This document shows, one piece after another, positions 1 to 43,400 of a stretch of 64,000 bases of DNA. The position numbers and the translations under genes were made by a program. A model generated the notes under the pieces. The model ran no database searches. It was not told the origin of the DNA and worked only from the letters and a program-made list of their open reading frames with translations. Each line of letters opens with the position of its first letter. Position 1 is the stretch's first letter. Origin of the DNA: an uncultured Gemmatimonas sp. (GTDB lineage: Bacteria > Gemmatimonadota > Gemmatimonadetes > Gemmatimonadales > Gemmatimonadaceae); the NCBI GenBank assembly GCA_964621045.1, contig CAZUKU010000018.1:3061-67060 (forward strand), in the 5' to 3' direction.

Positions 1-959
1 GCGAAGGGCGGATCGTGATGTTCGATCCCGCCACCGCCACGCTCACGCCCGTGGGCCGGCAAGGCTACGGGCCGCGCGAATGGTCGCGGGCGACTGCATT
101 GCTGCCGCTCGCCGGTGATTCGAGCATCCAGGCGAACCCCGTCGATCGCCGCTGGGTGCTGTTCGACGGAGACCGGGTGTCCCATGTCCTCCCGCCGGAC
201 GCTCCCGTCATCGCGGCTACCCGTGGTGTCGCGAGGGGAGCCGACCGGTTCGGGCGCGTTCTCACCCTGGTGAGCTGGAATACGGCCGACGAGGAAGGCG
301 ATCCCACGCCGCAGCTGGATTCCCTGGCCGCGGTGCTCTTCGACCGCGGGTCCGGACGGGGAGACACGGTGGCCATGCTGCGTTCACCTCCGGGTGAGGA
401 AACCCGCGGCCGGATCCGCGCCTCGAGTGAACCCGCGCTCGCCGTGGGAGAAGAAGTCGCGCTGTTCGTGGACGGCTGGCTCGCGGTGGCGCGCCTCGAT
501 CCCTACCGCATCGACTGGCGTGCGCCCACCGGCGAATGGACGCTCGGCGCTCCGCTTCCCGTTCCCGTGGTGCCGCTCGACACGCGGGAGAAGGAGGCCT
601 ATCTCGCACGAAGCCGCCGCACCATCGCGAGGCTCGACGACATGCCGCCCGAAGTCCGTGACATCTTCATGCGGCGATTCACGGAGTTCCCGGCCACCAT
701 TCCTCCCTTCCAGCCACTCGCCCTGCACGCCGGCACGGACGGCCGGCTGTACATCCGGCGGACGCCGACCGCGGATGCACCGGAGCCGCGCTACGACGTC
801 ATCGACCGTACGCACGGACTCGTGCATCAGCTCCGGCTGAAGCCGGAAGAACGCCTCGTCACCGCCACGCCGCGCGCGCTCCATGTGGTCTGGCCGGACC
901 CCGACGGCGTGGAACGCCTGCGACGGTATCCGCAGGTCGATCCGCAGCACCATCCGTGA
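1..959 (+). CDS. Beta-propeller-like exported protein, 5' end cut by the window edge; paralog of 6404..7558
   Basis: ORF 15..959. The frame stays open back to base 3 (EGRIV...). It aligns from about residue 65 of the 384-aa paralog: ENRIVAADLRAGTVQPVGRKG vs EGRIVMFDPATATLTPVGRQG; DGWIAIARVLPYRVDW vs DGWLAVARLDPYRIDW; DGLQRLRRHP vs DGVERLRRYP. Confidence 0.6.
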   Translation, partial: EGRIVMFDPATATLTPVGRQGYGPREWSRATALLPLAGDSSIQANPVDRRWVLFDGDRVSHVLPPDAPVIAATRGVARGADRFGRVLTLVSWNTADEEGDPTPQLDSLAAVLFDRGSGRGDTVAMLRSPPGEETRGRIRASSEPALAVGEEVALFVDGWLAVARLDPYRIDWRAPTGEWTLGAPLPVPVVPLDTREKEAYLARSRRTIARLDDMPPEVRDIFMRRFTEFPATIPPFQPLALHAGTDGRLYIRRTPTADAPEPRYDVIDRTHGLVHQLRLKPEERLVTATPRALHVVWPDPDGVERLRRYPQVDPQHHP

Positions 960-970
960 CCCGGACGAAA

Positions 971-1000
971 CGTCCGCCGGTACCGCCTCTCCGGCGGGCG
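971..1000 (+). terminator. Candidate intrinsic terminator after the first CDS
   Basis: cgtccgccgg / taccgcctct / ccggcgggcg gives a 10-bp stem with one mismatch. It starts 12 nt after the TGA at 957-959 and is followed by ctgtatcttt. Confidence 0.35.
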
Positions 1001-1086
1001 CTGTATCTTTGCAGGGATAGGCACGATCGGCTCAGGGGGTCGGATGGCGGTCTCGCCGGTCTCTCACCTCCAGCGTTTCCTTCCGC

Positions 1087-2367
1087 ATGACGCGATTGCG
1101 ATCCACCGTCAGACGGGTAGTGGTCACCGGCTTCGGTGCCGTCACGCCGCTCGGCCTCACGGCCGCCGCCACTTGGGATGCCGCCGTACGCGGCGTGAGC
1201 GGTGCGGCACCCATCACCCGCTTCGACGCATCCGGGCACACCACGCGGTTCGCCTGCGAGCTCAAGGGATTCGATCCGCTCGACCACGTGGATCGCAAGC
1301 TGGCCAAGCGCATGGACGTGTTCGCGCAGTACGCCATGGCCGCGGCCAACGAGGCGATCGCGCACGCCGGGCTCGATACCGCCACACTCACCGATGCGCA
1401 GCGCGCGCGGATCGGCGTGATCATCGGCAGCGGCCAGGGAGGCATGGAGACGTTCCAGCACCAGGCCGTCACGTGGCACACGAGCGGGCCGGGGCGGCTG
1501 TCGCCGTTCTTCGTGCCCATGATCATCTGCGACATCGCCGGCGCGTGGGTGGCCATGCAGCACGGGCTGCGCGGTCCGAATCACTGCGTGGTGTCGGCCT
1601 GCGCCACGGGCAACGACAACATCATGAGCGCGCTCGACTCCATTCGCGCCGGACGCGCCGACATCATCCTCGCCGGCGGCGCGGAGTGTGCGATCACGCC
1701 GCTCGGCGTGGGCGGATTCGGCGCCGCGCGTGCGCTCTCCACGCGGAACGACGAACCGGAACGCGCGAGCCGGCCGTTCGACACGGCGCGCGACGGGTTC
1801 GTGCTCGGCGAAGGAGCCGGCGTGCTGGTGCTGGAAGCGCTCGAGTCGGCGGAATCACGCGGCGCGACGATCCATGCGGAAGTGCTGGCCGTGGGCGCGG
1901 CGTGCGATGCGTATCATCTCACCGCGCCGCACCCGGACGGCGTGGGCGCGCGGCTCGCGATGGAAGCGGCGTTCGCCGAAGCGGGGATCGCGCCCACGGA
2001 CGTGGACACGATCAACATGCACGCCACGAGCACGGGGCTCGGCGACGTGGCCGAGTGCAGCGCGGTGCGCGCGGTGCTCGGCGAGCATACGGATCGCGTG
2101 ACGGCCACGGCCACGAAGAGCATGACGGGGCACATGCTCGGCGCGGCCGGCGCGGCGGAGGCGATCCTGTCGGTTCTGAGCATCACGCACGGGATCGTGC
2201 CGCCGGTGATCAATCTCGAGGCGATGGATCCGGGGTGCACGGTGCGCGTGGCGGCGAATGTGCCGGAGCGGCGGACGGTGCGTGTGGCGGTGAGCAATGC
2301 CTTCGGGTTCGGGGGGCATAATACCGCGGCGGTGTTCGCGGCGAGGGAAGTCGGGGATTCGAGGTAG
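1087..2367 (+). CDS. fabF: Beta-ketoacyl-ACP synthase II
   Basis: ATG at 1087. N-terminus RRVVVTGFGAVTPLG, active-site Cys context VVSACATG, MHATSTGLGD, C-terminal NAFGFGGHN. Length is 426 aa. Confidence 0.93.
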   Translation: MTRLRSTVRRVVVTGFGAVTPLGLTAAATWDAAVRGVSGAAPITRFDASGHTTRFACELKGFDPLDHVDRKLAKRMDVFAQYAMAAANEAIAHAGLDTATLTDAQRARIGVIIGSGQGGMETFQHQAVTWHTSGPGRLSPFFVPMIICDIAGAWVAMQHGLRGPNHCVVSACATGNDNIMSALDSIRAGRADIILAGGAECAITPLGVGGFGAARALSTRNDEPERASRPFDTARDGFVLGEGAGVLVLEALESAESRGATIHAEVLAVGAACDAYHLTAPHPDGVGARLAMEAAFAEAGIAPTDVDTINMHATSTGLGDVAECSAVRAVLGEHTDRVTATATKSMTGHMLGAAGAAEAILSVLSITHGIVPPVINLEAMDPGCTVRVAANVPERRTVRVAVSNAFGFGGHNTAAVFAAREVGDSR

Positions 2368-2402
2368 GGGCGGGTACTCGGGGCGATCCGTCGTTGAGGA
2401 GC

Positions 2403-2616
2403 GGGATCGGCCGCACGAGGTCGCAAGCGGCGGGTCGTTAGTCGCGAGTCACGAGGGTGCCTGGCGACTTACAGCCCCGAGACCCGGCGCCGGTGCTCGC
2501 TCCACGCGCCCTCGAGGGCGAAGAAGCGACAAAGCTGGCCAAGGGGGCCCGAGTCGCAGGCACCCTCGAGACTCGAGTCTAAAGACCCGCCGCTTGCGAC
2601 CTCGCACGGCCGATCC
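2403..2616. repeat. Long-hairpin intergenic repeat element, copy A (MITE-like)
   Basis: About 65-nt arms are inverted repeats: gggatcggccgcacgaggtcgcaagcggcgggtcgttagtcgcgagtcacgagggtgcctggcgact (2403-2469) and agtcgcaggcaccctcgagactcgagtctaaagacccgccgcttgcgacctcgcacggccgatcc (2552-2616). The same element, in the same orientation, recurs at 33017-33221. Confidence 0.85.
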
Positions 2617-2703
2617 TGCATCCGGGCAAATCCTCGCGAAAAGCCCCCACGGCGCAAACCCGGCCGCCCGGGACTAACTTCCGGCAGCCAATTGCCCCCG
2701 CCG

Positions 2704-5469
2704 ATGAAGGGCCATTCCCCTGCCCCGCCGAGGTCCGACGTGTCGAACCCCAGGTTCCCCCGCATCCTGTTCCTGATCGCGATCCCCGTCGCGATCTTCC
2801 TCCTCCCGACGCTGAGCGGACTGCTCGTCGACTTCTGGTGGTTCCGGGAGGTCGGCTACGAGGTGGTCTTCACCCGCTCGCTGGTCACGAAGCTGCTGCT
2901 CTTCGCCGGCACGGCCGTGGTCGCGGCGCTGGTCTTCGGCGGCAACCTGGCGTTCGCGCAGCGGGGCGCGGTGCCGGAGCCCGTGCTCGTGAAGATCGGC
3001 GACGCCACGCAGACGGTGGACCTCACCGGCGTGCTCCGCCGCTTCACCCGTCCGGCCACCATCGTCATCAGCCTCATCGTGGCGCTCGGCGCCACGGCGC
3101 TCTGGGACACGCTGCTGCTGTACCTCAACCGCACGCCGTTCGGCACGACCGATCCCGTCTTCTCGCGCGACATGGGCTGGTACGTGTTCACGCTGCCCGC
3201 GCTCTCCGCCCTGCTCGGCGTGGCGCGCAGCCTGGTCACGCTGAGTCTCATCCTGCTCGTGCCGCTGTACTTCTTCCGCGGCGACGTGGTGATGCTGCCG
3301 CGCGGGCTCCGCATCGAGCCCACGGCCGGCCGCCACCTCGGCGTGCTGCTCGCCACCTGGTTCCTGCTCGCCGGCATCGAGCTCTGGTTCGTGGACTCGG
3401 CGATGCTCCTGTACTCCGGCACCGGACCGCTCACGGGCGCGAGCTACTCCGACCTGCACGCCACGCTCCCCGCGTTCCGGGCGCAGGCGGTGGTGGCGCT
3501 GCTCGGCGTCCTGCTCGTGCTCCTGGGCGCGTTCCGCGCGCAGCTCGGCTGGTATGCCTTTCTCGCCGTTGGCGCGTATGCCGTGGTGGGCGTGCTCGGC
3601 CGCGGCGCCGCGCCGTGGCTCGTGCAGAAGTTCGTGGTGGCGCCCACCGAGCTCACGCGGGAATCGCCGTACCTCGCACACCACATCGAGGCCACGCGCC
3701 GCGCCTGGTCGCTCGACGGCGTGGAAGTGCGCGAGCTCGCCGGCGAAACGGCGCTCACCATGGCGCACATCCGCGCCAATGGCCCCACGATCGAGAACGT
3801 GCGCCTCTGGGACCGCGCGCCGCTTCTCCGCACGTTCAAGCAGCTCCAGGAAATCCGCACGTACTACGACTTCGTGTCCGTGGACGACGACCGCTACTGG
3901 ATCGACGGCAAGTACCGCCAGGTGCTGCTCTCCACGCGCGAGCTCAACTCCGCGTCGCTCCCCACGCGCACGTTCATCAACGAGCATCTCACCTTCACGC
4001 ACGGCATGGGGCTCACCATGAGCCCCGTGAACGAAGTGACGCCCGAAGGGCTGCCCGTGCTCTTCGTGCAGGACCTGCCGCCGCGGGCCGTCCGGTCGCT
4101 GCAGGTGAGCCGGCCGCAGATCTACTACGGCGAGCTCACGTCGTCGCACGTGTTCGTGAACACCAACCAGCGCGAGTTCGACCACCCGTCGGGCGAGGCG
4201 AACGTGTTCCGCGCCTACACCGGCACCGGCGGTGTGCCGGTGGGGAACATCCTGCGCCGGTCGCTGCTCGCGCTGCACTTCGGCTCCACCAAGATCCTGC
4301 TCTCGGGCGACATCACGTCGGAGAGCCGCATCCTGTACAACCGCAACATCCGCGAACGCGTGCGGAAGGCGCTGCCGTTCCTCACGCTCGACCGCGATCC
4401 GTACATCGTGCTCGCCGAAGACGGCACGATGCACTGGATCCAGGACGCGTACACCACCACCACGCGGTATCCGTATTCGTTCCGCGCGAACGACGGCACG
4501 AGCTACATGCGGAACAGCGTCAAGATCGTGATCGACGCGTACAACGGCACGCTGCGGGCGTTCATCTCGGCGCCGGACGATCCGATCGTGCAGTCGTGGG
4601 CCAAGGTCTTCCCCGGCATCTTCCAGCCCATGACCGCGATGCCGGACGATCTCCTGGCGCACCTGCGGTATCCGGACGACCTGTTCCGCGCGCAGTCGGC
4701 GCTGTACACCACGTACCACATGGACACGCCGGAGGAGTTCTACAACCGCGAGGACCAGTGGCAGATCCCGAGCGTGGACCGCTCCGACGGGTCGGTGCCG
4801 TTCATGCGGCACATCATCATGCGGCTCCCCGACGAGCCCGCGGCCGAGTTCATCTACATGGCGCCGTTCACGCCGCGCGGCAAGGACAACCTCGCCGCGT
4901 GGATGGTGGCGCGGAACGACGGCGAGCACTACGGCAAGCTGCGCGTGTACCGGTTCCCGCGGCAGAGCCTCGTGTACGGCCCGCGGCAGATCGAGAACCG
5001 CATCAGCCAGAACACGGAGATCTCGCGGCAGATCGCGCTCTGGGACCAGCGCGGGTCGCAGGTGATCCGCGGCGACCTGCTCGTGATTCCGATCGAGGCC
5101 GCGCTGCTGTACGTGCAGCCCATCTACACGCAGGCCGACGGCGGCCGCATCCCCGAGCTCAAGCGTGTGGTGATCGCGTACGCGGACCAGGTGGTGATGC
5201 GCGAGACGTTCGAATCGGCGCTGTCGGCGCTGTTCGGCGGACCGGACGACGGACCCGTGCGCATGGCGGTGGACGTGGGCGCGGGCGAGGAAGAGCCGGC
5301 GGTCGCGGTGAGCGCCACGCTGCAGACGCTCATCAGCGACGCGCGCCGCCGCTACCAGGCCGCGGTGGATGCGCAGCGCGACGGTGACTGGGCGCGGTAC
5401 GGCGAGGAGCTCCGGCAGCTCGGCACGCTGCTGGAGCGGCTGGAGGCGACGCGGACGGCGCAGCCGTAG
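2704..5469 (+). CDS. UPF0182-family large membrane protein
   Basis: ORF 2692..5469 (TTG at 2692, first ATG at 2704). About 920 aa with a multi-TM N-terminal third and a large soluble C-terminal part. Motifs such as [24 protein letters not shown] and [20 protein letters not shown] match the UPF0182 family as I recall it. Confidence 0.8.
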
Positions 5470-5486
5470 CGAGGAGATCCGGGCCC

Positions 5487-5918
5487 ATGCGGCATCCCAG
5501 CCCCGATTCCGCGGCCGTGCGCCGCCGGGGGAGCACGCGCGTCGTGGTCGCGATCGTGCTGCTCGCCGCATGCGCTCTCGCCGTCTTCGGCGTCCTCGCG
5601 TTCGGTCTCACGGAGAAGGCACAGCCCCCGCGCGCCCTCGGGGTCGACAGCGTGAACCTGTCGGCCGCCGATTTCCTGCGCCATTATACCAGTCAGGTGC
5701 GGGCCGAGCGGGAGGCCGCGATGCTGTACCTGCTCGGCGTGCAGGACGCCACCGAAGGCCGGTCGTGGTGCGACTACGGAACGATCAAGTCCATCACGCT
5801 GCGCGAGTTCGTGTTCGAGCACTTCCGGAAGCAGTCGCCGCAGGCCCTGCAGCGCCGGGCCGCCCACGTGATCGAGGAAGCGCTGACGACCAGTTTCCCC
5901 TGCCGGAGCGGATCATGA
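5487..5918 (+). CDS. Rap1a/Tai4-type periplasmic immunity protein (membrane-anchored or lipoprotein)
   Basis: ATG at 5487, preceded by GAGGAG at 5471-5476. N-terminal hydrophobic anchor with a lipobox-like VLLAAC. Rap1a-like pattern [18 protein letters not shown]...[36 protein letters not shown], with two conserved-looking Cys. Sits directly upstream of, and overlaps, a Tae4-type gene. Confidence 0.7.
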
Positions 5919-6403
5919 CGCCGACGTACAAGAAGCTTCGCGATCATCACTACTCCTCCGACCATACCCGGAGCGGTTATGTGTCGGCGGAGGATCTGTA
6001 CAAGGAGATCGGCTACACGCTGGAGGAGCTGGTCAAGCAGAACGCGGGGTACAGCAATACCTGCGCGGTTCGCGTGAGCCTCGCGCTGCTCAAGGCGGGG
6101 GTGGCGTTCAAGGGGCGGCTGCCCGTCAAGGCCGGCCCCTTCAAGGGCAAGATGATCGAGCCGGGCGCCAAGCTGCTGGCCGACCAGCTCAAGCTGCCCT
6201 CGGTCATCGGCAAGCCGAAATACCTCAAGCCCGAGGACGCGTCGGCGAAGATCGGCATGAAGCGGGGCGTGGTCTTCTTCTGGAAGATCGTCGATTACGG
6301 CGGCGGGCACATCGATCTCATCGAAACCGTCACCATGGAACAGCAGTGCAACTCGAACTGCTACTTCTCGTGCAAGGAAGTGTGGTTCTGGGAGTTGCGC
6401 TGA
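5915..6403 (+). CDS. tae4: Tae4/Ssp1-family peptidoglycan amidase (T6SS-type effector), 162 aa, no signal peptide
   Basis: ATG at 5915 overlaps the upstream TGA (ATGA at 5915-5918), with GGAG 6 nt upstream. Catalytic Cys context [14 protein letters not shown] (tgc 6062-6064). His context [11 protein letters not shown] (cac 6308-6310). CxxxC pair QQCNSNCYF and a C-terminal VWFWELR. This parallels Salmonella Tae4 (NACPIRMSYVL ... GHVTLWNGSICSDQC ... LWILP). Confidence 0.8.
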
Positions 6404-7558
6404 TCAGCGCCAAGGGTGCCGCCGGAGCCGCTGCAGGCCGTCGCTGTCGGAGACCGCGACATACACGGCCCGCGCGCCGAAACCCACGATGCGTTCCTCG
6501 AGCGGCAGCGTGATCCGGCCGGTCACGATTCCGCGACGGTCCACCACGTCGTAGCTCCGCGCCATGCCCTCGGCGGAGGGCAGGCGCTCCACCAGCAGCC
6601 GGCCATCAGGGGACGCGAAGAGCGCGCCCGCATCGAAGCGGCTTGCCGGCTCCACGAACGGCGGCACGAAATCCAGCCAATTGCTCGTCTCCTCGATCGC
6701 GGAGGTGGGCGGCCATGTGCCCAGACGGTTCGCCATTTCGAGATGTGCGCGCTTCTCCCGGTCGGTCATCGGCACCGGACGCGCCTGCAACACCGGCCCC
6801 GTCGTGCAGCCGCCGGCGGGCGCGCACCAGTCCACGCGGTACGGCAGCACGCGGGCGATCGCGATCCACCCGTCGGGGAAGGCGATGAACTGGTCCATGG
6901 CATTCATGGATATGCTGTACCGGGGACGTGTGCCCGCGGCCGCCCCTCCAGCCCGTTCGGCACCGGCTGCGGACGTTCCCGGCGGCATGATGAGGGAGCG
7001 CACCCGCGCGATGGTATCCTTGCGCGCGGTGCGGCCGTCGTACCGCACGAGCCAGAGTGAATCCGGTATCTGTCTCCTGTTCCCGTCGCTCGGGAGCTCG
7101 GCAAAGATCAAACGGCTGCTCCCGTCCGCTCCCAGGAGCCGCCCCCACGCCATGGACGTCACCACCGGATCGCTGCCGGTGTGTGTGCCCACGATCCTGT
7201 CGCCGTCGAACACGAGCCAGCCGCTCGCGTTGAAGTTCCGCATGATCGTGGAGTCCCCGCCCATGGCCCAGAGCCGGACCACCTGGGTGAACTCGCCGGG
7301 CCCGCTTCCCTTACGGCCCACGGGCTGCACCGTGCCGGCGCGCAGGTCGGCCGCCACGATGCGGTTCTCCTTTTCGTCGGTGATCAGCACCCGGCCGTCG
7401 CGCAGTTCGCGCACGCCGGCGATCACGCTGAACTCCTCGGCAAGGCGGGCATCGGCCGGCGGCAGCGTGATCGCGGTCTGCGCGTGCAGGGCCTGGCACG
7501 GGAGCGCCAGCATGAGGCCGGGCATGGTCAGGCGGACAAGGCGGCAGCCGATCGACAT
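6404..7558 (-). CDS. Exported beta-propeller-like protein (paralog of 1..959)
   Basis: ATG at 7558. Signal peptide MSIGCRLVRLTMPGLMLALPCQALHAQ and an NHL-like GSGPGEF motif. Shares blocks with the first CDS. Its stop codon abuts the tae4 stop. Confidence 0.65.
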   Translation of the reverse strand: MSIGCRLVRLTMPGLMLALPCQALHAQTAITLPPADARLAEEFSVIAGVRELRDGRVLITDEKENRIVAADLRAGTVQPVGRKGSGPGEFTQVVRLWAMGGDSTIMRNFNASGWLVFDGDRIVGTHTGSDPVVTSMAWGRLLGADGSSRLIFAELPSDGNRRQIPDSLWLVRYDGRTARKDTIARVRSLIMPPGTSAAGAERAGGAAAGTRPRYSISMNAMDQFIAFPDGWIAIARVLPYRVDWCAPAGGCTTGPVLQARPVPMTDREKRAHLEMANRLGTWPPTSAIEETSNWLDFVPPFVEPASRFDAGALFASPDGRLLVERLPSAEGMARSYDVVDRRGIVTGRITLPLEERIVGFGARAVYVAVSDSDGLQRLRRHPWR

Positions 7559-7700
7559 GGCAGAGGGGGTTCAGTTGAACCAGGCGGCGCAGCATCAGTG
7601 CGCTGGCACTAGAGATGGGGGCGCAACAGGATCGAAGCAAGTTCAGCAGTGGGCGGCTATAGGCGATAGCCAACCGCCCATGGCCTATTGCCGTAGTGCG

Positions 7701-7753
7701 CTTCGCTCCATTTGGCCGTTCGGCCGGTTCCCGTTTGGCCATTCGGCCGGGCA
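7701..7753. repeat. Left arm (core) of the large inverted repeat flanking the tandem array
   Basis: cttcgctccatttggccgttcggccggttcccgtttggccattcggccgggca is the reverse complement of 8066-8117 except for a few bases near the outer end. Weaker similarity extends outward to about 7676. Confidence 0.85.
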
Positions 7754-7832
7754 CACTTCGGACACGGACGACAACCGCGATGGTGCCCTCACGGACGGTA
7801 CAGGGATGCCGGGACCGTGCGCCGGCCCGGGT

Positions 7833-7992
7833 GGGCAATAGGCTATAGGCCATGGCCGATCGCCCCACCCGAGGGCAATAGGCTATAGGCCATGGCCGAT
7901 CGCCCCACCCGAGGGCGATAGGCTATTGCCCATGGCCGATCGCCCCACCCGAGGGCAATAGGCTATTGCCCATGGCCGATCGCCCCACCCGG
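7833..7992. repeat. Four head-to-tail 40-bp tandem repeats
   Basis: The unit is gggcaataggctataggccatggccgatcgccccacccga. Copies lie at 7833-7872, 7873-7912, 7913-7952 and 7953-7992. Copies 3 and 4 carry ggctattgcc instead of ggctataggc. Each unit contains small palindromes (ggccatggcc; gggcaata..tattgccc). Confidence 0.95.
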
Positions 7993-8065
7993 ACGGTGCT
8001 CCTTGCCGGCATCCCGCCTGTTCCCGCAGGGCTGCCCCGGTCTCTCCGTGCCATTGTCCGCAGCC

Positions 8066-8117
8066 TGCCCGGCCGAATGGCCAAACGGGAACCGGCCGAA
8101 CGGGCGATGGAGCGAAG
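8066..8117. repeat. Right arm (core) of the large inverted repeat
   Basis: tgcccggccgaatggccaaacgggaaccggccgaacgggcgatggagcgaag is the reverse complement of 7701-7753. Similarity continues to about 8140-8160. Confidence 0.85.
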
Positions 8118-8233
8118 AACAACAGCGGCAATGGGCAATGGGCCATAGCCCATGGCCTACCGCACAGGCCGAGCCACTGGCGCGGCTCGGGCACGCTGTT
8201 TACTCTACCTGTCTGCCGGCAACGCCGGCACAC

Positions 8234-8307
8234 GGGCGTGTAGCTCAGCTGGTTAGAGCGCTGCTTTCACACAGCAGAGGTCCGGGGTTCGAGTCCCTGC
8301 ACGCCCA
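8234..8307 (+). tRNA. tRNA-Val (anticodon CAC)
   Basis: 74-nt cloverleaf. Acceptor GGGCGTG/CACGCCC plus discriminator A. D arm GCTC-AGCTGGTTA-GAGC. Anticodon arm CTGCT-TTCACAC-AGCAG. T arm CGGGG-TTCGAGT-CCCTG. CCA is not encoded. Confidence 0.93.
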
Positions 8308-8318
8308 TACAACGACTC

Positions 8319-8350
8319 GCGCGGGTGGATACCTCGTTATCCACCCGCGC
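8319..8350. terminator. Perfect 13-bp hairpin between tRNA-Val and the convergent hflX (likely bidirectional terminator)
   Basis: gcgcgggtggata-cctcgt-tatccacccgcgc. It begins 12 nt after the tRNA 3' end. The hflX TAA stop (8337-8339) and its last codons lie inside the hairpin. Confidence 0.6.
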
Positions 8351-9599
8351 TCGTCAATTCCACCCCCGCCTGGCGCAGCCGGCCGGCCAGGCGGTCATCC
8401 ATGCGCACGGTCACGACCAGATCGGCGCCGTCGGCCTTCTGGTCCACCACCTCGCCGTCCCGGTGGAGCGATGCGAGCACCGCCCCCTGATGCGCGCCCA
8501 CGCGCACCTTCATGAGCGGGCGCAACTGCCGGATCGCCGTGACCAGCGCGGCCCGGAGCGGCTCCAGCCCGCCCGGCGCATGCGCCGACACGAACAATGC
8601 ATCGGGCACGAGATTGTGCACGCGCTCCCGGAACCCTTCCCGCTCCGCCATCGGCAGCGCGTCCATCTTGTTGCACACCAGCCGCACCGGACGCGCCTGC
8701 AGGCCGAGATCGGCCAGCACGTCGTCCACCACGCCACGATGCTCCTCCCATGCCGGATGGCTCACGTCCACCACATGGAGCAGGAGATCGGCCTCGCGCG
8801 CCTCGGCCAGCGTGGCCCGGAACGACGCCACGAGATGGTGGGGCAGCTTGCGGATGAATCCCACCGTGTCGGTGAGCAGCACGCTGTAGCCCTCGCCCAC
8901 GTCGATCTCGCGCGTGAGCGGATCGAGCGTGGCGAAGAGCCGGTCCTCCACGAACACGCCGTCGTCGCGCGCGAGCGCGCGCAGAATGGACGACTTGCCC
9001 GCGTTCGTGTAGCCCACCAGCGCGGCCTTGAACTGCGACTTCCGCTGCTGCCGCTGCACTTCGCGCGCCCGCTCCACGTCGACCAGGCGCTCCTTCACGA
9101 TCTTGATGCGGTGCTGGATGAGCCGCCGGTCGGTTTCGAGCTGCGTTTCACCCGGGCCGCGCATGCCGATGATGCCGCCGCGCGTGGTATCCAGGTGGGT
9201 CCACATGCGCGTGAGGCGCGGCAGCGTGTACTCGAGCTGCGCCAGCTCCACCTGCAGCCGCGCTTCGGCAGACCGCGCGCGTGTGGCGAAGATGTCGAGA
9301 ATGAGCTCGGCGCGATCCATCACGCGCGTGTTCGTGGCCGTCTCGATGTTGCGCGCCTGCGCGGGCGAGAGCTCGTCGTCGAACACGATGAGCGTGGCGC
9401 CGAGCTCGCCGATGCGGAGCGTCAGCTCGTCGAGCTTGCCGCTGCCGAGATACGTGCCCGGATGCGGCCGGTCGATCACCTGCGTGAGCGTGCCCACGAC
9501 CTCGGCGCCGGCCGTGTCGACCAGGCGCGCGAGTTCCTCGAGATGTTCGTCCATCTGGTGGCGTTCGCTCCCGCGCTTGCGCGGCGCGCCCACGAGCAT
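8337..9599 (-). CDS. hflX: GTPase HflX
   Basis: G1 GYTNAGKSSILRAL, DTVGFIRKLPHHLVASFRATL, G4 NKMD. HflX-type N-terminal domain. Length is 420 aa. Confidence 0.92.
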   Translation of the reverse strand: MLVGAPRKRGSERHQMDEHLEELARLVDTAGAEVVGTLTQVIDRPHPGTYLGSGKLDELTLRIGELGATLIVFDDELSPAQARNIETATNTRVMDRAELILDIFATRARSAEARLQVELAQLEYTLPRLTRMWTHLDTTRGGIIGMRGPGETQLETDRRLIQHRIKIVKERLVDVERAREVQRQQRKSQFKAALVGYTNAGKSSILRALARDDGVFVEDRLFATLDPLTREIDVGEGYSVLLTDTVGFIRKLPHHLVASFRATLAEAREADLLLHVVDVSHPAWEEHRGVVDDVLADLGLQARPVRLVCNKMDALPMAEREGFRERVHNLVPDALFVSAHAPGGLEPLRAALVTAIRQLRPLMKVRVGAHQGAVLASLHRDGEVVDQKADGADLVVTVRMDDRLAGRLRQAGVELTSAGG

Positions 9600-9672
9600 C
9601 GCCTTTTCGACCGGCGGGGCGAGAGAAATCGGTTCCCTGGAAATCGTCAGGACTCCTGGCGGGCGGACGCGG

Positions 9673-10191
9673 TCAGCGCTCGACGCCGGATACGGTGTTG
9701 AAACGCCCGGTGCGATCGTACGGCCGCGTGAAGTTGCCGAGCGGGGTGACGACGGTGAAGTCGCCGCGCACGCGATAGTTCACGCTGCCGGTGGAAAGGA
9801 TCTGCCGTCCGGCCTCGCCGAGTCCGCGATAGGTGAAGCGGATGGGGAGGCGTACCATGGACGTGTCGCCGCTCGGCACCACGAAGCGCGAATCGAGCGC
9901 GCCGTTGCCGAGCTGCACCGAGTCGACGTCCACGCGATAGGTCATGCGCGTGGCGTCGAGCGAATAGCGGTTGGGATTGTAGATCGAGAGCACGACGTCC
10001 ACGTTGCCGCCGTCGATGCCGAGGCCGGCCACGCGCACTTCGCGCAGCTCGACGTACGGTTCGGCGAAGGTGGCTCGGCCGAGCGTGGCGCACGCCGCGA
10101 CCGTGCCCAGTGTGACGGCGAGCACGCCGGCGCGCGCGACACGCGACCGGATGCCGGTGGTTCCTGCTCTATTTCGCGTCGTCCACTTCAT
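9673..10191 (-). CDS. LEA_2 / NDR1-HIN1-like (WHy-type) lipoprotein
   Basis: ATG at 10191 (MKWTTRN...) and lipobox TLGTVAAC. The beta-rich body (VELREVRVAGLGIDGGNVDVVLSIYNPNRYSL...VRLPIRF...NYRVRGDFTV) is typical of the LEA type-2 fold. It overlaps the rarA 3' end by 23 nt. Confidence 0.5.
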   Translation of the reverse strand: MKWTTRNRAGTTGIRSRVARAGVLAVTLGTVAACATLGRATFAEPYVELREVRVAGLGIDGGNVDVVLSIYNPNRYSLDATRMTYRVDVDSVQLGNGALDSRFVVPSGDTSMVRLPIRFTYRGLGEAGRQILSTGSVNYRVRGDFTVVTPLGNFTRPYDRTGRFNTVSGVER

Positions 10192-11536
10192 GGGCTGCTT
10201 CTCCAGCGGGGTGGGACGGATCGGCCGGCGCGTCGGCCAGCCGTTCGCGCATGGTCTGCCACCAGGCGAGCCGTTTGGCGATGTCCTTTTCGAATCCGAA
10301 CGGACCGGCTTCATAAAAGGTACGCGACGCGAGCTCCGGCGGCAGATAGTCCTGTGGCAGGTACGCCTCGGGCACCTCGAATGCGTACTGGTACCCGGAG
10401 CCATAGCCGAGTTCCTTCATGAGCTTCGTGGGCGCGTTCCGGAGGTGGAGCGGCACGGGCGCGGCCGGTGTGGCGCGCGCGGCCTCGAGCGCGGCCTTCC
10501 AGGCGGCATACACACGATTCGACTTGGGCGACGTGGCCAGGTACACGGCCGCTTCGGCGAGCGCGAGCTCCCCTTCGGGCGAGCCGAGCCGTTCATACGT
10601 TTCCGCGGCGGCGATGGCGAGCGGCAGCGCATCGGGGTCGGCGAGCCCGATGTCTTCGGTGGCCATGCGGATCATGCGGCGCGCGATGTAGCGCGGGTCT
10701 TCCCCGCCCTCGATCATGCGGGCGAGCCAGTAGAGCGCACCCTGCGGATCGCTGCCGCGGAGCGACTTGTGCAGCGCGGAGATGAGATTGTAGTGCTCCT
10801 CGCCGCTCCGGTCGTAGCGCGGCATGCGGCGCTGCGCGGCCTGCACGATCTGTTCGGCGGTGATCTCCGCGCCGTCTGGCACGAGCGCGGCGGCGGCCTC
10901 GAGCACGCCGAGCGCACGGCGCGCGTCGCCGTCGGCGAGCTCGGTGAGCTGCTGCATGGCGTCGTCGTGCAGCGACAGCGCGCGCGTGCCGAGTCCGCGA
11001 TCACCGTCGGTGAGCGCGCGGCGCACGAGCACGGCGAGATCGTCCGGCGCGAGCGGTTCGAGCACCACCACGCGCGCGCGGGACAGGAGCGCGCCGGTGA
11101 GCGCGAACGACGGATTCTCGGTGGTGGCGCCCACGAGCACGACGGTACCTGCTTCCACGTGCGGCAGGAAGGCGTCCTGCTGGGCACGGTTGAAGCGGTG
11201 GATCTCGTCCACGAACAGCAGCGTGCCGCGGCCGAGCTCGCGCCGCCGCGCGGCGTCGGCCACCACTTCACGCACGCGCGCCACGCCGTCGCTCACCGCC
11301 GAGAAGGACACGAACTCCGCGTCGGTGGCGCGCGCGAGCAGCCGCGCGAGCGTGGTCTTGCCCACGCCGGGCGGGCCCCAGAGAATGAGCGAATCGATCA
11401 CGCGCCGGTCGATCGCCGCGCGGAGCGCGGCGCCCGGGGCGAGCAGATGCGCCTGCCCCACGAACTCGTCGAGCGCGCGCGGCCGGAGCCGCGACGCGAG
11501 CGGTTCGGACACCTGACCGGAGAAGAGGGACGTCAT
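10169..11536 (-). CDS. rarA: Replication-associated recombination protein A (AAA+ ATPase)
   Basis: ATG at 11536 (MTSLFSGQVSEPLASRLRP). Walker A GPPGVGKTTLARLLA, Walker B LLFVDEIHRFN, MgsA C-terminal block EEHYNLISALHKSLRGSD. Confidence 0.92.
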   Translation of the reverse strand: MTSLFSGQVSEPLASRLRPRALDEFVGQAHLLAPGAALRAAIDRRVIDSLILWGPPGVGKTTLARLLARATDAEFVSFSAVSDGVARVREVVADAARRRELGRGTLLFVDEIHRFNRAQQDAFLPHVEAGTVVLVGATTENPSFALTGALLSRARVVVLEPLAPDDLAVLVRRALTDGDRGLGTRALSLHDDAMQQLTELADGDARRALGVLEAAAALVPDGAEITAEQIVQAAQRRMPRYDRSGEEHYNLISALHKSLRGSDPQGALYWLARMIEGGEDPRYIARRMIRMATEDIGLADPDALPLAIAAAETYERLGSPEGELALAEAAVYLATSPKSNRVYAAWKAALEAARATPAAPVPLHLRNAPTKLMKELGYGSGYQYAFEVPEAYLPQDYLPPELASRTFYEAGPFGFEKDIAKRLAWWQTMRERLADAPADPSHPAGEAAHEVDDAK

Positions 11537-36575: not shown

Positions 36576-39500
36576 TCATGGATTGGAGAGCCCCTTCAGC
36601 CAGTGGGCGAACTGCGCCAGGTCGGCACTCGCCGACGCGGCGTCGGGCGCCGGAGCGGCATCGCCCGCTCCTGAAGCTATCGCCCCGGACGGCGGCGCGT
36701 CGGCACCGCGCGGCCGGTCGGTGGTGGCCGGGTCGGGGAAGAAGCGGTCGAACGAGAAGGCGGCGGCCTGGGGGGCCGGCGCTTCGGGGCTCGCGGGCGC
36801 CGCGGGCGTCTCGCCCGCCGGCTCCGGCGGCGCGAAGAGCGACGGCCCGGGCTCGATGTGTGCCTCGCTGCCGAACGCGCGGGCGAGCGACTGGGCGGCC
36901 TGCTCCTCCTGCGGCGACGGCAGGTCGCCGAACAGGCTCGCGAGCCCGTCGGCCGGCGTGGCCACGGACACGGCGGCTCCGCCGAAGGCGGGCGTCCGGC
37001 GCGCGACGCGCATGGCCGCGAGCGCGGCGAAGAGCTGCCGGGCCGTGCGGCGCGGCGCGGGCGCCACCAGCGGCACCGCGGCCGGAGTGGCGGACCGGTA
37101 CGGCGTGGACGGACGAACGGGCGTGGCGCTCCGCGGCGTGGGGCTCCACGCGGTGGCCGGCGTGCTGCTCCATGCGGGGGTCGCGCTCCGGACCGGTGTC
37201 GCGGACCGCACGGGCGTGGCCGCGCGTATCGGCGTCACGCCGTAGAGCGGCGTGGGCGCGTGCGGGTCGACCTCGTCGGGCTCGCCGGCGTCGTGCGCGA
37301 GCATCTCGCGCAGCTCGACCAGCCGGCTCGACAGCACGGCATCGTACGGCCGGCGACGGACGAGCTCCTCGTACACGCCGACGGCCCGCTCCACGAAGCC
37401 CTGCGCCACGAGCAGTTCGGCCATCGTCTCCGTCACGAACGCGGGGCCGGTGGACGGCGCCGGTTCGTCGGACGACGCGTCCGGGGCGGATTCGGGGGCG
37501 GGAGATTCGGCGTGGACGACAGGGGCCTCCACATCGGCGGCGAACGTTTCTTCGACGGCTTCCGCCTCCGCGGCGAACGCATCTTCCGCGGCGAACTCAG
37601 CGGCCGCGACGACTTCCACCTCTCCGGTGATCTCCTCGACCACGGCATGGGCATCCGGAACGTCGTCGAATTCCTGCGCCGTCTCCGGCACGAGGGCCTC
37701 GGCCTCCCGCTCCTCCTCGGCCACCGACAGCCACGGGATCTCGACCGCCGAATACGGCGGGTCTTCGTCCACGATCTCGAAGCTGTCGTCGGCCTGGGTG
37801 TCATCGATGGCGTGTTCGGCTTCGGCAGCGTCCACGGCCTCGGCGTCCTCGCGGGCCCAGGCTTCGACCAAGGGCTCCGCGGCGGTGTCCGCGGCCGCGT
37901 CATCCTCGGCGGTGTCCTCCTCGACGACGGGAGCCGCTTCGGCCACGACTTCGGCGGCTTCCTCGACTTCGGCCACGACTTCGCCGACTTCGACAGTTTC
38001 CTCGACTTCGGCCACGATCTCCGCGGCAGCCACGTCCTCGCCAGCGTCACCGGCGGACACCGGCGCGGCTTCACCGAACGCGGCATCCACGGCCAGGATC
38101 TCCACCGGCGTCGCACTCCGCGCCGGCGTGGCCGGCCGGCTCGAGAGCAGATTCGTGTCCGGCCACTCCTGCGCCACCAGCCCTTCCTCGAACTCGTCGG
38201 CTCCCGTCGACGTCGCATCGACCGCCGGGACATCGGACCACGGGCTGCGCTCCGAGGACGCCTCGGACGCCGCCTCTTCCACCAGCCCGGCCTCGGCCGG
38301 CGGAGCGATATCCAGCGGATCGTGGGTCGCGAACGCGCCGAGCGCCGCCGCGAGCGGGTCCACGTTCTCCTCCGTGGACATGTTCTCGGCGTCGATCCAG
38401 GCATCGGCCAGCACATCGGCCGCGGATTCCGGTTCAACGGCCGTCGCGTCCGCCGGGTCGTTCCCGAATACACTCGCCGGATACTCCTCCGGCGCGTCCG
38501 CGGGATCGTTCCCGAACGCACTCGCCGGGTACTCCTCCGTCGCGTCCGACGCCTCCGCGGCCTCACTCCCGAACGCGCCCGCCGGATACTCCTCCGTCTC
38601 GTCCGCGGCCTCACTGCCGGCCGCGCGCACCGGATACTCCTCGGTCGTGTCCAGCACGCTCGCGGCGTCGCTTCCGAAGGCGAGCACCGGATACTCCTCC
38701 GTCTCGTCCAGCGCGTCCGCGGCAGCACTTTCGAACGCCTGGCCCGGATACTCCTCCGTCGCGTCTGCATCGTCGCTCGCCGCCGGCACATCATCCCCAG
38801 CCGGCATTTCCATCGAGAGCACGATCTCCACCCGCCCGTCCCGCGCGAAAGGCTCCGCCGCCGGCTCCGTGAGGAAGTCCGGAATCTCGAGCCCCTCCGC
38901 ATCGTCCGACGCCTGCTCCCCGGGCTGCGCCTCGGCAGCCGGAGCCTCGGCGGCCGGAACCTCGGCCGCCGGTGCCGGCGGCGGAGCGGCAAAGGAATCC
39001 GCCGAAAAATCGATGTCGAGCAGATCGGCATCCCGGTCCACGGGCGTGCCGGCTGCCGGTGTACCGGCGGGCGGGGCAACCGTCTGCGATCCCAGGGGCG
39101 TCAGGAACGCCGGGGTATGCCAGGCCGGCGCATCCGGGGACTCGAACGGGTCCTCGGGGATTTCCACGGGCAGCACCGGCGCGGCGCCGAACGCGGGCGT
39201 TCCCGTCGCCTCGGCCGCGGGCGGCGCGGGCGGATACGACGGCGCCGAGGGCGGCGTCACCGACCGGGGGGTGAACCGCTGGGCCAGCGACGCCAGCAGG
39301 GCCGCGATGTCGTCGTTCCGGGGGTCCGCGTCGAGCACGCGCTCGTACCAGCGCCGCGCCGAGCCGGCGTCGCCGCGCGCCCGCGCGATGTCGCCAAGGT
39401 GCCGGAGCGCGATGAGGTTCTCCGGATCGAGCCCGAGCGCGGCCTCGAAGACGCCCTGCGCCTCGGCCAGGTCGCCGTTTTCATAGAGCGCCTGCCCGAA

Positions 39501-39674
39501 CACGATGTGCCCGCTCATGTGGCCCGGCTGCTTGGGCAGATATTCGCGACAGAGCGCGATGGCCTGGGCCAGCTCGCCGGCCTTGCGGTACTCGTTGGCC
39601 AGCGGCGCGAAGTAGCGACGCGGGTTTTCCTCGAACTTGCTGCGGAGCTCGTCAATCCGGGCGGCGGTGCTCAT
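36576..39674 (-). CDS. Giant TPR protein with highly acidic repetitive centre (about 1030 aa)
   Basis: ATG at 39674 (or 39689). N-terminal TPRs (FAPLANEYRKAGELAQAIALCREYL...ENLIALRHLGDIARARGD...). A long Asp/Glu/Ala/Val/Pro-rich region with EEYP repeats. A TPR-like helix pair TMAELLVAQGFVERAVGVYEELVRRRP. ATPVRS repeats. The stop lies 7 nt from the aroQ start. Confidence 0.75.
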   Translation of the reverse strand: MSTAARIDELRSKFEENPRRYFAPLANEYRKAGELAQAIALCREYLPKQPGHMSGHIVFGQALYENGDLAEAQGVFEAALGLDPENLIALRHLGDIARARGDAGSARRWYERVLDADPRNDDIAALLASLAQRFTPRSVTPPSAPSYPPAPPAAEATGTPAFGAAPVLPVEIPEDPFESPDAPAWHTPAFLTPLGSQTVAPPAGTPAAGTPVDRDADLLDIDFSADSFAAPPPAPAAEVPAAEAPAAEAQPGEQASDDAEGLEIPDFLTEPAAEPFARDGRVEIVLSMEMPAGDDVPAASDDADATEEYPGQAFESAAADALDETEEYPVLAFGSDAASVLDTTEEYPVRAAGSEAADETEEYPAGAFGSEAAEASDATEEYPASAFGNDPADAPEEYPASVFGNDPADATAVEPESAADVLADAWIDAENMSTEENVDPLAAALGAFATHDPLDIAPPAEAGLVEEAASEASSERSPWSDVPAVDATSTGADEFEEGLVAQEWPDTNLLSSRPATPARSATPVEILAVDAAFGEAAPVSAGDAGEDVAAAEIVAEVEETVEVGEVVAEVEEAAEVVAEAAPVVEEDTAEDDAAADTAAEPLVEAWAREDAEAVDAAEAEHAIDDTQADDSFEIVDEDPPYSAVEIPWLSVAEEEREAEALVPETAQEFDDVPDAHAVVEEITGEVEVVAAAEFAAEDAFAAEAEAVEETFAADVEAPVVHAESPAPESAPDASSDEPAPSTGPAFVTETMAELLVAQGFVERAVGVYEELVRRRPYDAVLSSRLVELREMLAHDAGEPDEVDPHAPTPLYGVTPIRAATPVRSATPVRSATPAWSSTPATAWSPTPRSATPVRPSTPYRSATPAAVPLVAPAPRRTARQLFAALAAMRVARRTPAFGGAAVSVATPADGLASLFGDLPSPQEEQAAQSLARAFGSEAHIEPGPSLFAPPEPAGETPAAPASPEAPAPQAAAFSFDRFFPDPATTDRPRGADAPPSGAIASGAGDAAPAPDAASASADLAQFAHWLKGLSNP
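38455..38765 (-). repeat. In-frame coding repeats (about 6-7 copies, 48-57 bp) encoding (T)EEYPxxAFG(S/N)xxA
   Basis: The plus strand repeats ccgg(a/g)tactcctcc near 38479, 38527, 38584, 38631, 38689 and 38746. Protein: TEEYPGQAFESAA / TEEYPVLAFGSDAA / TEEYPVRAAGSEAA / TEEYPAGAFGSEAA / TEEYPASAFGNDPA / PEEYPASVFGNDPA. Confidence 0.9.
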
Positions 39675-39911
39675 CCGGTCAATCCCCATGGGGTGGTGTT
39701 CCCGGCGCGGTCCATGTGCGGAACCTATGTTGCGCCGCTTCGGGAAGTCAATTGCAGACGGGTGCTGAAGTGCCGACGTCACTTGCCTTTACACTCTCGC
39801 GCCCCCTACTTTTCACTGCTTGTCCCCGACATCCGCCGTGGCTCCAGCGTCGAGCCGCGGCCCCTCTGTCGGGCGTGCTGTCAACCTCCCCGTTCGAAGG
39901 AGTCCCGCCCC

Positions 39912-42396: not shown

Positions 42397-43400
42397 CACC
42401 ACCGCCGGTCCACGGCGTAGCCGATCGCGTCGAGCAGGTTCGCCTTCGCTGGCCCTTCGGGCACCGTGACGAGCGCCTCCTCGGCTTCCTGGGCGAACTG
42501 GTCGGCCCGGCGGCGGGCATACTCCAGTCCACCCGAATCGCGCACCAGCGCGATGACCTCGGCCACCGCCTCCTCCTCCGGCTCCGAGGTCGCGAAGAGC
42601 CGCTCCACCAGCGCGCGCGCGGCCGGCGACATCTGCCGGAGCGACGCGATCAGCGGCAGCGTGACCTTGTGCTCCCGGAGATCGAGCCCGCTCGGCTTCC
42701 CCGTCATCTCCGCGGTTTCGGTGTAATCGAGCAGGTCGTCGGCCACCTGGAACGCCATGCCGAGACGCTCGCCGTAGCGCGCGAGCGCCTCGCGGTGCGC
42801 TTCGGCGCCGCAGAGCGCGCCCACCGAGCAGGCGGCCACGAACAGCGCCGCGGTCTTGGAGCGGATGAGCCGCTCGTAATCCGCTTCGGTGAACGCGAGC
42901 GCGTCGAACGCGGCGAGCTGCCGCATTTCTCCGAGCGTCATCGCATCGGACGCCTGCGACACCGCGCGCATGATCTCGATGTCGGCGAGCTTCACGAGCT
43001 CGCGCATCACGCGCGAGTAGAGGAAGTCGCCCATGATCACCGATACCTGGTGACTGAACAGCGCGTTCACCGTGGGCATGCCGCGTCGCAGCACGGAATG
43101 ATCCACGGCGTCGTCGTGAATGAGCGTGGCCAGGTGCAGCAGCTCCACGACCGCCGCGCTGGTGATCGCGCGCGGCTGCATGCGATCCTCCACGGCGCTC
43201 GAGAGCAGCGTGAGTGTGGGACGCAGCAGCTTGCCCTTCATGCCGAGCAGGTGATTGCTCACCTCCTGCACGAGCGGCACGTCGGCGGCCACGATGCGCC
43301 GGATCTCGCCGGGCACGGCTTCGAGCTCCCGGCGCACGGGAGCCTGAATGTCACGGAGCGCGGCGGCGAGCGCCGACGGGGTGCGCGCGGATACGGTCAT
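42396..43400 (-). CDS. ispB: Long-chain polyprenyl diphosphate synthase
   Basis: First Asp-rich motif LIHDDAVDHS and second QVADDLLDY. ATG at 43400 (or GTG at 43403) overlaps the upstream stop. Confidence 0.88.
   Translation of the reverse strand: MTVSARTPSALAAALRDIQAPVRRELEAVPGEIRRIVAADVPLVQEVSNHLLGMKGKLLRPTLTLLSSAVEDRMQPRAITSAAVVELLHLATLIHDDAVDHSVLRRGMPTVNALFSHQVSVIMGDFLYSRVMRELVKLADIEIMRAVSQASDAMTLGEMRQLAAFDALAFTEADYERLIRSKTAALFVAACSVGALCGAEAHREALARYGERLGMAFQVADDLLDYTETAEMTGKPSGLDLREHKVTLPLIASLRQMSPAARALVERLFATSEPEEEAVAEVIALVRDSGGLEYARRRADQFAQEAEEALVTVPEGPAKANLLDAIGYAVDRRW

Follow-up and report, generated by a model that had tools for sequence, protein, structure and literature searches.

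A gene pair of the Ssp1–Rap1a (Tae4/Tai4a) type, probably acquired from Pseudomonadota, in a genome of the Gemmatimonadaceae

The closest described relatives of the gene pair reported here are Ssp1 and Rap1a of Serratia marcescens Db10, an effector and immunity protein that belong to a type VI secretion system (T6SS). Ssp1 cuts the bond between gamma-D-Glu and meso-diaminopimelic acid (mDAP) in monomeric as well as cross-linked muropeptides, with a Cys50/His133/Asp135 triad and an active-site disulfide (Cys146-Cys150), and Rap1a, which has a disulfide of its own (Cys78-Cys122), forms dimers that occlude the Ssp1 active site in a heterotetramer (PMC3852654). In the cytoplasm the enzyme does no harm; its toxicity appears only once it is in the periplasm (PMC3533786). 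The Tai4 proteins of Salmonella and Enterobacter are a structurally distinct immunity family (PMC3852654). We now find a pair of the Ssp1–Rap1a type, a tae4/ssp1-like gene (162 aa) preceded by a rap1a-like gene (143 aa), in a stretch of 64,000 nucleotides (the window) from an uncultured Gemmatimonas sp. of the family Gemmatimonadaceae (assembly GCA_964621045.1, contig CAZUKU010000018.1, positions 3,061 to 67,060, forward strand). The identity of the pair and its horizontal origin are near certain. Our preferred reading, with a probability of about 0.55, is that it is an intact T6SS effector–immunity pair, an orphan that relies on a T6SS in another part of the genome.

The 162-aa protein aligns with Serratia Ssp1 (4BI3) over residues 1-161 at 62% identity (E 8.5e-64). 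Its AlphaFold2 (AF2) model (pLDDT 89) superposes on 4BI4/4BI3 with a TM of 0.96 and a root-mean-square deviation (rmsd) of 1.1 Å, and has the same two-subdomain papain-like fold. The catalytic residues are Cys50 (TGC, 6062-6064), His132 (CAC, 6308-6310) and Asp134 (6314-6316), and a CNSNC motif holds the disulfide pair Cys145 (6347-6349) and Cys149 (6359-6361). All five positions are invariant across 61 effector sequences, i.e., the window copy and 60 proteobacterial homologs, which form the set used for our sequence comparisons. Against those homologs, the window protein keeps 33 of 33 invariant columns and 51 of 52 columns that are at least 90% conserved, the sole change being K to R, and at 0.43, its average distance from the other members is close to the family median (0.42). 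By homology, it is predicted to be a papain-like (NlpC/P60-CHAP) DL-endopeptidase with a Cys50-His132-Asp134 triad, of the kind that cuts gamma-D-Glu–mDAP. It is Lys-rich (18 K, pI 9.2) and has no signal peptide; because its alignment with Ssp1, which is likewise without a signal, begins at residue 1, the protein would be made in the cytoplasm and would need an injection machine. An NCBIfam search gave nothing for the effector, and a PHROGs search gave nothing for rap1a, tae4 or the convergent 384-aa gene that follows them.

The 143-aa protein consists of a strongly hydrophobic, putative N-terminal anchor (residues ~18-41) and a Rap1a/Tai4a helical domain (residues 51-142). In a phmmer search, the domain aligned with PDB 3ZFI/4BI8 without gaps at ~55% identity (E 4e-28), and its AF2 model matches 3ZFI over 87 residues with a TMt of 0.90 and an rmsd of 1.1 Å. 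Cys95 (5769-5771) and Cys139 (5901-5903) align with C78 and C122 of Rap1a and are invariant in the family, and each of the 21 columns with at least 80% family conservation is kept (21/21). The hydrophobic segment has a mean Kyte-Doolittle hydropathy of 3.09 over 19 residues, the top value among 61 family members; the others reach ~0.4-2.6, and their N-termini are mostly Sec- or lipobox-like. AF2 models residues 18-36 as helical, but the pLDDT there is low. We predict a signal-anchor or transmembrane helix here, or alternatively a lipoprotein signal that uses the LAAC motif; the N-terminus looks like an uncleaved anchor and not like a classical signal. Either arrangement would put the Rap1a domain on the periplasmic side, where immunity is needed.

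These results bear out much of an original prediction that had been made from the letters of the window. Both open reading frames (ORFs) are present on the forward strand at the positions it gave (5487..5918 and 5915..6403), as are the Cys50 and His132 codons, the CNSNC pair, the quoted Rap1a motifs, the ATGA overlap with GGAG 6 nt before the ATG, and the Lys-rich, signal-less character of the effector. Its assignment to a Tae4/Ssp amidase with a Rap1a immunity protein was right and can now be narrowed to the Ssp1–Rap1a type: the Pfam Tae4 and Rap1a scores both lie well above their cutoffs (Table 1), and the structural matches to 4BI3 and 3ZFI agree.

What the original prediction took to be unusual in the arrangement turns out to be common. 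The ATGA start/stop overlap (5915-5918) and the GGAG (5905-5908), separated from the ATG by a 6-nt spacer, together (5905..5918) look like signals for translational coupling. For the family survey, one genome per species was scanned, which yielded 75 loci with relatives of the pair. Nearly every locus has a same-strand Rap1a homolog directly upstream, and the exact 4-nt overlap recurs in 51 of 60 full-length homologous pairs, Serratia included. The Serratia order is tssB-tssC-rap1a-ssp1-hcp (rap1a 9621..10004, ssp1 10001..10492), in agreement with the gene numbers SMA2260 and SMA2261 given by English et al. 2012 (PMC3533786). The immunity-first order is thus a conserved architecture. The stand-alone position is no oddity either. 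Enterobacterales copies lie within T6SS main clusters, beside hcp, and 46 of the 75 loci have zero T6SS core genes of our search panel within 10 kb. In a Pfam scan of 150 ORFs flanking those 46 loci, there was no recurrent VgrG, PAAR or Hcp family; instead, the flanks hold RelA/SpoT, MazG and assorted housekeeping genes, with integrases and transposases recurring. Given these counts and flanks, the stand-alone cassette is the commonest arrangement in the Ssp1-type subfamily. Large ORFs upstream of pairs that have no T6SS genes nearby had been candidates for VgrG and were rejected on the same scan. In all, the pair is typical of its family, its host phylum being the one unusual feature.

Some further properties of the family concern its mobility. 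Ssp1-type cassettes are often far more AT-rich than their hosts (e.g., a Delftia gene, L045, with a G+C content at third codon positions (GC3) of 0.42 in a locus of GC 0.67). Several copies can occur in one genome: three each in ND3_Bin_17 and Thiotrichaceae NORP103, and two each in Aliikangiella, Dentiradicibacter and nzgw582. Several cassettes (among loci L005-L079) lie near integrase or transposase genes. Because of the AT-richness, the multiple copies and these neighbours, we suggest that the two-gene unit is itself mobile.

How did such a pair come to be in a member of the Gemmatimonadaceae? All 75 genome loci with relatives belong to Pseudomonadota or to records labelled 'delta proteobacterium'. 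A metagenome scan added 80 loci, in which the high-GC copies were only Paracidovorax-like, with 88-97% DNA identity to a Paracidovorax copy (L049); two of these carriers (L114 and L158) were considered as possible Gemmatimonadota copies and rejected on that identity. A plasmid search returned four Rhizobium plasmids only, at 36-38% identity. Among 5.8 billion proteins, the closest effector is 64% identical, and the closest immunity protein match is at 62-64%. In a neighbour-joining tree, the window effector forms a long solitary branch outside every shallow clade. The closest known pair (L083, 61% GC) lies in the order tssC-hcp-rap1a-tae4.

The flanking DNA, in turn, is native. The adjoining UPF0182 protein has its best named homologs in Gemmatimonadaceae/Gemmatimonadota, and in the three closest relatives (loci L080-L082) this protein is 76-79% identical. 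Their gene order is FabF – S51 peptidase – UPF0182 – tRNA-Val – HflX – LEA_2 – RarA, with only ~100-160 bp from the UPF0182 stop to tRNA-Val, a conserved right-hand landmark of the insertion site; homology with the window upstream of this tRNA picks up again at about 8170. Because the pair is missing at the syntenic site in all three, it occupies a ~2.7-kb insertion between UPF0182 and tRNA-Val. Of the traits of a mobile islet, the block shows absence in relatives; neither an integrase nor a transposase nor a flanking direct repeat was found for it, and its composition is not deviant (GC3 equals that of the host). The stretch from 3823 to 7737 recurs at 100% identity in four independent assemblies from four sequencing runs, and since the junctions are reproduced in this way, they are not chimeric. 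Because the host belongs to the Gemmatimonadaceae, the pair is missing in close relatives, the other carriers are proteobacterial and the nearest homolog is at 64%, it is near certain that this lineage acquired the pair horizontally, probably from Pseudomonadota.

The acquisition does not look recent. With a GC3 of 0.907, the effector gene is the highest of the 61 copies (family median 0.41), and at 0.90-0.91 it falls within the range of its neighbours (0.88-0.96); the impression that it has more A/T-ending codons than they do was wrong. Its overall GC of 0.61 is lowered at codon positions 1 and 2, where its Lys-rich composition is felt. GC1 and GC2 of the immunity domain are the highest in its family, and much of its Lys has given way to Arg (K 2 and R 10; the family medians are 9 and 5), whereas the effector still has its 18 Lys. 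Because host-like codon usage goes together with complete conservation of functional positions, we infer that both genes evolved for a long time against a high-GC background and under purifying selection, probably with a particular constraint on the basic surface of the effector. Part of the high-GC adaptation could predate arrival, if the donor itself was high-GC.

Under our preferred reading, the effector would travel as Hcp cargo and be injected into competing diderm bacteria by a T6SS whose genes lie in another part of the genome. The N-terminal anchor would hold the Rap1a domain at the periplasmic face of the inner membrane, protecting the producer and its kin, and translational coupling would ensure that the immunity protein is made whenever the toxin is made. 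In Serratia, dimers of the Rap1a domain obstruct the active site of Ssp1 sterically, and the 143-aa protein, which carries the same domain, may do likewise. We favour this reading because the effector lacks an export signal, the two genes are undamaged and appear to be under selection, the closest relative belongs to a tssC-hcp-rap1a-tae4 cluster, and a T6SS is on record in the Gemmatimonadaceae. That system, of subtype i4b, is on the 1.1-Mb Gemmatirosa kalamazoonesis plasmid NZ_CP007129.1 (PMC9113992), which makes a T6SS elsewhere in the window's genome plausible.

Several observations weigh against this reading. As the original prediction had noted, no T6SS gene was found in the 64-kb window, either with a tblastn panel (TssA/B/C/F/L/M, Hcp, Fha, TagF and PppA) or in Pfam scans, which were run on the genes from 18.8 kb onward, the part from 8.3 to 18.8 kb being judged via the Pfam annotation of syntenic genes in relatives. 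In plasmid surveys, NZ_CP007129.1 is the sole Gemmatimonadota T6SS replicon, T6SS appears to be rare in the phylum, and the plasmid search found no Tae4 homolog on that replicon. No other Gemmatimonadota carrier of the pair was found in the species-level genome scan, the metagenome scan or the protein search. A foreign Hcp may also refuse this cargo. As for the pair itself, the effector shares 8 of 13 and the immunity protein 4 of 12 of the 4BI8 interface residues by alignment-based mapping, with several paired changes among them, and Gln84 of Rap1a, which contacts the catalytic His, is Lys here. The altered interface positions include Q84K, R119S and R62M in Rap1a and Y17H, D130G and H149N in the effector. 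As the interface is only partly conserved, it is the linkage of the two genes, together with co-evolution of the two proteins across the family (r = 0.81 between their distance matrices), that suggests that the 143-aa protein may neutralise the effector.

If the genome has no T6SS, what would keep the pair in place? The anchored Rap1a-like protein could shield this soil bacterium against proteobacterial neighbours armed with Ssp1/Tae4, with the effector kept only by its close coupling. The lack of T6SS genes in the 64 kb, the few reports of T6SS in Gemmatimonadota and the frequency of pairs without nearby T6SS genes in the family all suit this explanation, as does the immunity gene, the more host-adapted of the two (top GC1/GC2, Lys to Arg). 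However, orphan immunity genes usually lose or truncate their toxin, and this effector is unrelaxed: its invariant and near-invariant columns, triad and disulfide are kept, its branch length is average, and it held on to its 18 lysines under the GC pressure that stripped those of its partner. We therefore regard defensive retention as rather unlikely. A T6SS-independent use is less probable still. The enzyme might act in its own population or be released by lysis, vesicles or another contractile system, and the pair might serve as an inhibitor-controlled autolysin, a remodelling enzyme or an addiction module of the toxin–antitoxin kind. Tae-family amidases have been domesticated in T6SS-less recipients, e.g., as eukaryotic dae genes; the pair looks long selected in a lineage without a demonstrated T6SS, and its operon-like site, 17 nt behind the gene of a housekeeping membrane protein, suggests that it is transcribed together with native genes. 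We disfavour an endogenous amidase because the enzyme has neither a Sec nor a Tat nor a lipoprotein signal and so no apparent way into its own periplasm; nor does the vicinity hold an accessory gene for some other means of export, and Ssp1 becomes toxic only on periplasmic targeting (PMC3533786).

About equally improbable is a functionless passenger, a cassette from another high-GC donor that has not yet decayed. The pair is a singleton in its phylum and is missing in the closest relatives, and high-GC proteobacterial copies exist (Paracidovorax, GC3 0.89; L083, GC3 0.76-0.84), so the host-like codon usage could predate arrival. Yet the nearest high-GC copies are just 52-64% identical, so that no recent donor is visible, and there is no sign of decay in either frame, in the coupling signals or at any conserved residue. 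An assembly or binning artefact, in which the pair would belong to a proteobacterium, is very improbable: every other known carrier is indeed in the Pseudomonadota, but the flanking genes on both sides are syntenic with Gemmatimonadaceae, both junctions recur at 100% identity in the assemblies of four runs, and GC3 matches the host.

The pair extends a well-studied antibacterial effector–immunity family into the Gemmatimonadota, an abundant yet poorly studied soil phylum, and the locus offers a clean case of a two-gene toxin–antidote cassette that crossed phyla, with its codon usage adapted and every functional residue fixed. If the complete genome has a T6SS, this is a routine orphan pair. 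If it has none, it becomes a test case for what sustains T6SS effector genes without a T6SS. It is doubtful that an organism without any T6SS has long kept an intact, codon-adapted amidase together with a newly membrane-anchored Rap1a. If this were true, a T6SS effector–immunity module would have taken on a role independent of any T6SS, in a phylum outside the Proteobacteria. Candidate roles are delivery by another system, regulated lysis or kin discrimination, and addiction, with the module stabilising a defensive immunity gene.

The surroundings of the pair are summarised in Table 1. The UPF0182 gene ends 17 nt before the rap1a start; its own start was inferred from a 909-aa NCBI call. Downstream, the stop codons of tae4 and of the convergent 384-aa gene adjoin without an intervening base (TGATCA, 6401-6406), and there is thus no space for a terminator. 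Scans for sigma-70 promoters and terminators were uninformative. The 384-aa protein gave a chance-level Pfam match to DUF5128 only (E 0.25), and its family is large: 3,166 cluster representatives match at E<=1e-3, and 545 at E<=1e-30. As had been predicted, the gene has a paralog, at 15..959 (+), with 35% identity over 320 aa. The two paralogs, neither with a significant Pfam match, flank FabF–UPF0182–rap1a–tae4 in inverted orientation, and neither is at these positions in the three relatives. In the relatives, FabF has a tRNA-Met upstream of it and is separated from UPF0182 by a Peptidase_S51 gene, and the window (960-2740) is without both, so the neighbourhood has been rearranged in more than one place.

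The spacer between the 384-aa gene and tRNA-Val is rich in repeats. An internally palindromic 40-bp unit, GGGCAATAGGCTATAGGCCATGGCCGATCGCCCCACCCGA, is repeated in tandem in four copies (7833-7992), with degenerate copies at 7661 and 8133, and a 49-nt inverted repeat (7716-7764 / 8055-8103, 94% complementary) brackets the tandem array. The tandem repeat does not recur elsewhere in the window and matched no Rfam family. Because two independent Logan assemblies break at 7737, within the left arm of the inverted repeat, the region may well be a multi-copy element in the genome. Just upstream of tRNA-Val (8174-8215), the motif CCACTGGCGC, followed after ~15-20 nt by GTTTACTCTAC, is common to all four Gemmatimonadaceae genomes and may be the promoter region of the tRNA. 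An Rfam scan of 5300-8400 found this tRNA as the sole match.

The window is housekeeping DNA throughout. Its Pfam families include UPF0182, RecX, RecA, penicillin acylase, a TonB-dependent receptor, FtsK, AccC, PilT, AroQ, PpiD, TatA/TatC, Hut genes, an LptD-like protein and TolB/TolR/TonB-like proteins. HflX, RarA, the CCA enzyme and AlaRS were assigned via the Pfam annotation of syntenic genes in relatives, and FabF, LysM and SSB by reading the translation. Two genes on the reverse strand (36576-39782 and 43400-46624) encode ~1,070-aa proteins with terminal TPR repeats; the middle of the second protein is clearly long, acidic, low-complexity and repetitive.

Table 1. Features at and around the rap1a–tae4 pair, in window coordinates
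Feature	Coordinates	Strand	Basis and remarks
UPF0182 family membrane-protein gene	2740..5469	+	Native housekeeping neighbour; Pfam PF03699, 884 bits
~2.7-kb block (rap1a, tae4, 384-aa gene, repeat-rich spacer)	5470..8170	.	Missing at the syntenic site of L080-L082
rap1a-like immunity gene, 143 aa	5487..5918	+	ORF; Pfam PF18602, 54.3 bits (cutoff 27.7)
Hydrophobic segment, 23 residues	5538..5609	+	Preceded by RRRGSTR; LAAC lipobox-like motif inside
tae4/ssp1-like effector gene, 162 aa	5915..6403	+	ORF; Pfam PF14113, 53.4 bits (cutoff 27)
Convergent 384-aa gene	6404..7558	-	ORF; predicted secreted protein; no significant Pfam match
Non-coding repeat region, ~600 bp	7560..8170	.	Between the 384-aa gene and tRNA-Val
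tRNA-Val (CAC)	8234..8307	+	ARAGORN; Rfam, 70 bits; same tRNA in the same place in L080-L082

Among known systems, the window pair is most like Ssp1–Rap1a of S. marcescens Db10 (4BI3, 3ZFI, complex 4BI8; PMC3533786, PMC3852654). The two share protein families, effector and immunity-domain lengths, the triad and the disulfides in both proteins, with 62% and ~55% identity; in both, the immunity gene comes first with a 4-nt overlap, and the effector is basic and without a signal peptide. They differ in host (Gemmatimonadota here, Enterobacterales there) and in context, as the pair here is not between tssC and hcp. The long, very hydrophobic anchor stands in place of the 26-residue cleavable Sec signal of Serratia Rap1a, several 4BI8 interface residues differ in both partners, and the second immunity paralog (rap1b) is absent here.

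In its setting, the pair also resembles those that environmental Gamma- and Betaproteobacteria carry without a T6SS core gene of our panel within 10 kb (the 46 of 75 loci, e.g., L005, L010, L011 and L014), which are likewise two-gene cassettes in varied housekeeping contexts, with the immunity gene first, an overlap, and 55-62% identity to the window effector. In contrast to the window copy, which matches the codon usage of its host and has no adjoining mobility gene, those pairs are usually AT-rich relative to their hosts (hence the low family median GC3), and several lie near integrase or transposase genes.

The Tae4–Tai4 pairs of Salmonella Typhimurium, Enterobacter cloacae and Agrobacterium tumefaciens (4HFF, 4HFL, 6IJF) are far more distant. 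They share the Pfam effector family, the fold and the chemistry, and have a periplasmic immunity protein that blocks the active site (the location being predicted here). The effector model has 38% identity to Agrobacterium Tae4 and 16-20% to the Salmonella and Enterobacter proteins, with a TM of 0.56-0.68. The dae genes of eukaryotes offer a parallel of another kind, since there too a Tae-family amidase was transferred horizontally beyond the T6SS-bearing hosts in which it is usual. The Dae proteins acquired signals for secretion, and their immunity partner was lost, whereas in the window the effector gained no signal and the immunity gene was kept.

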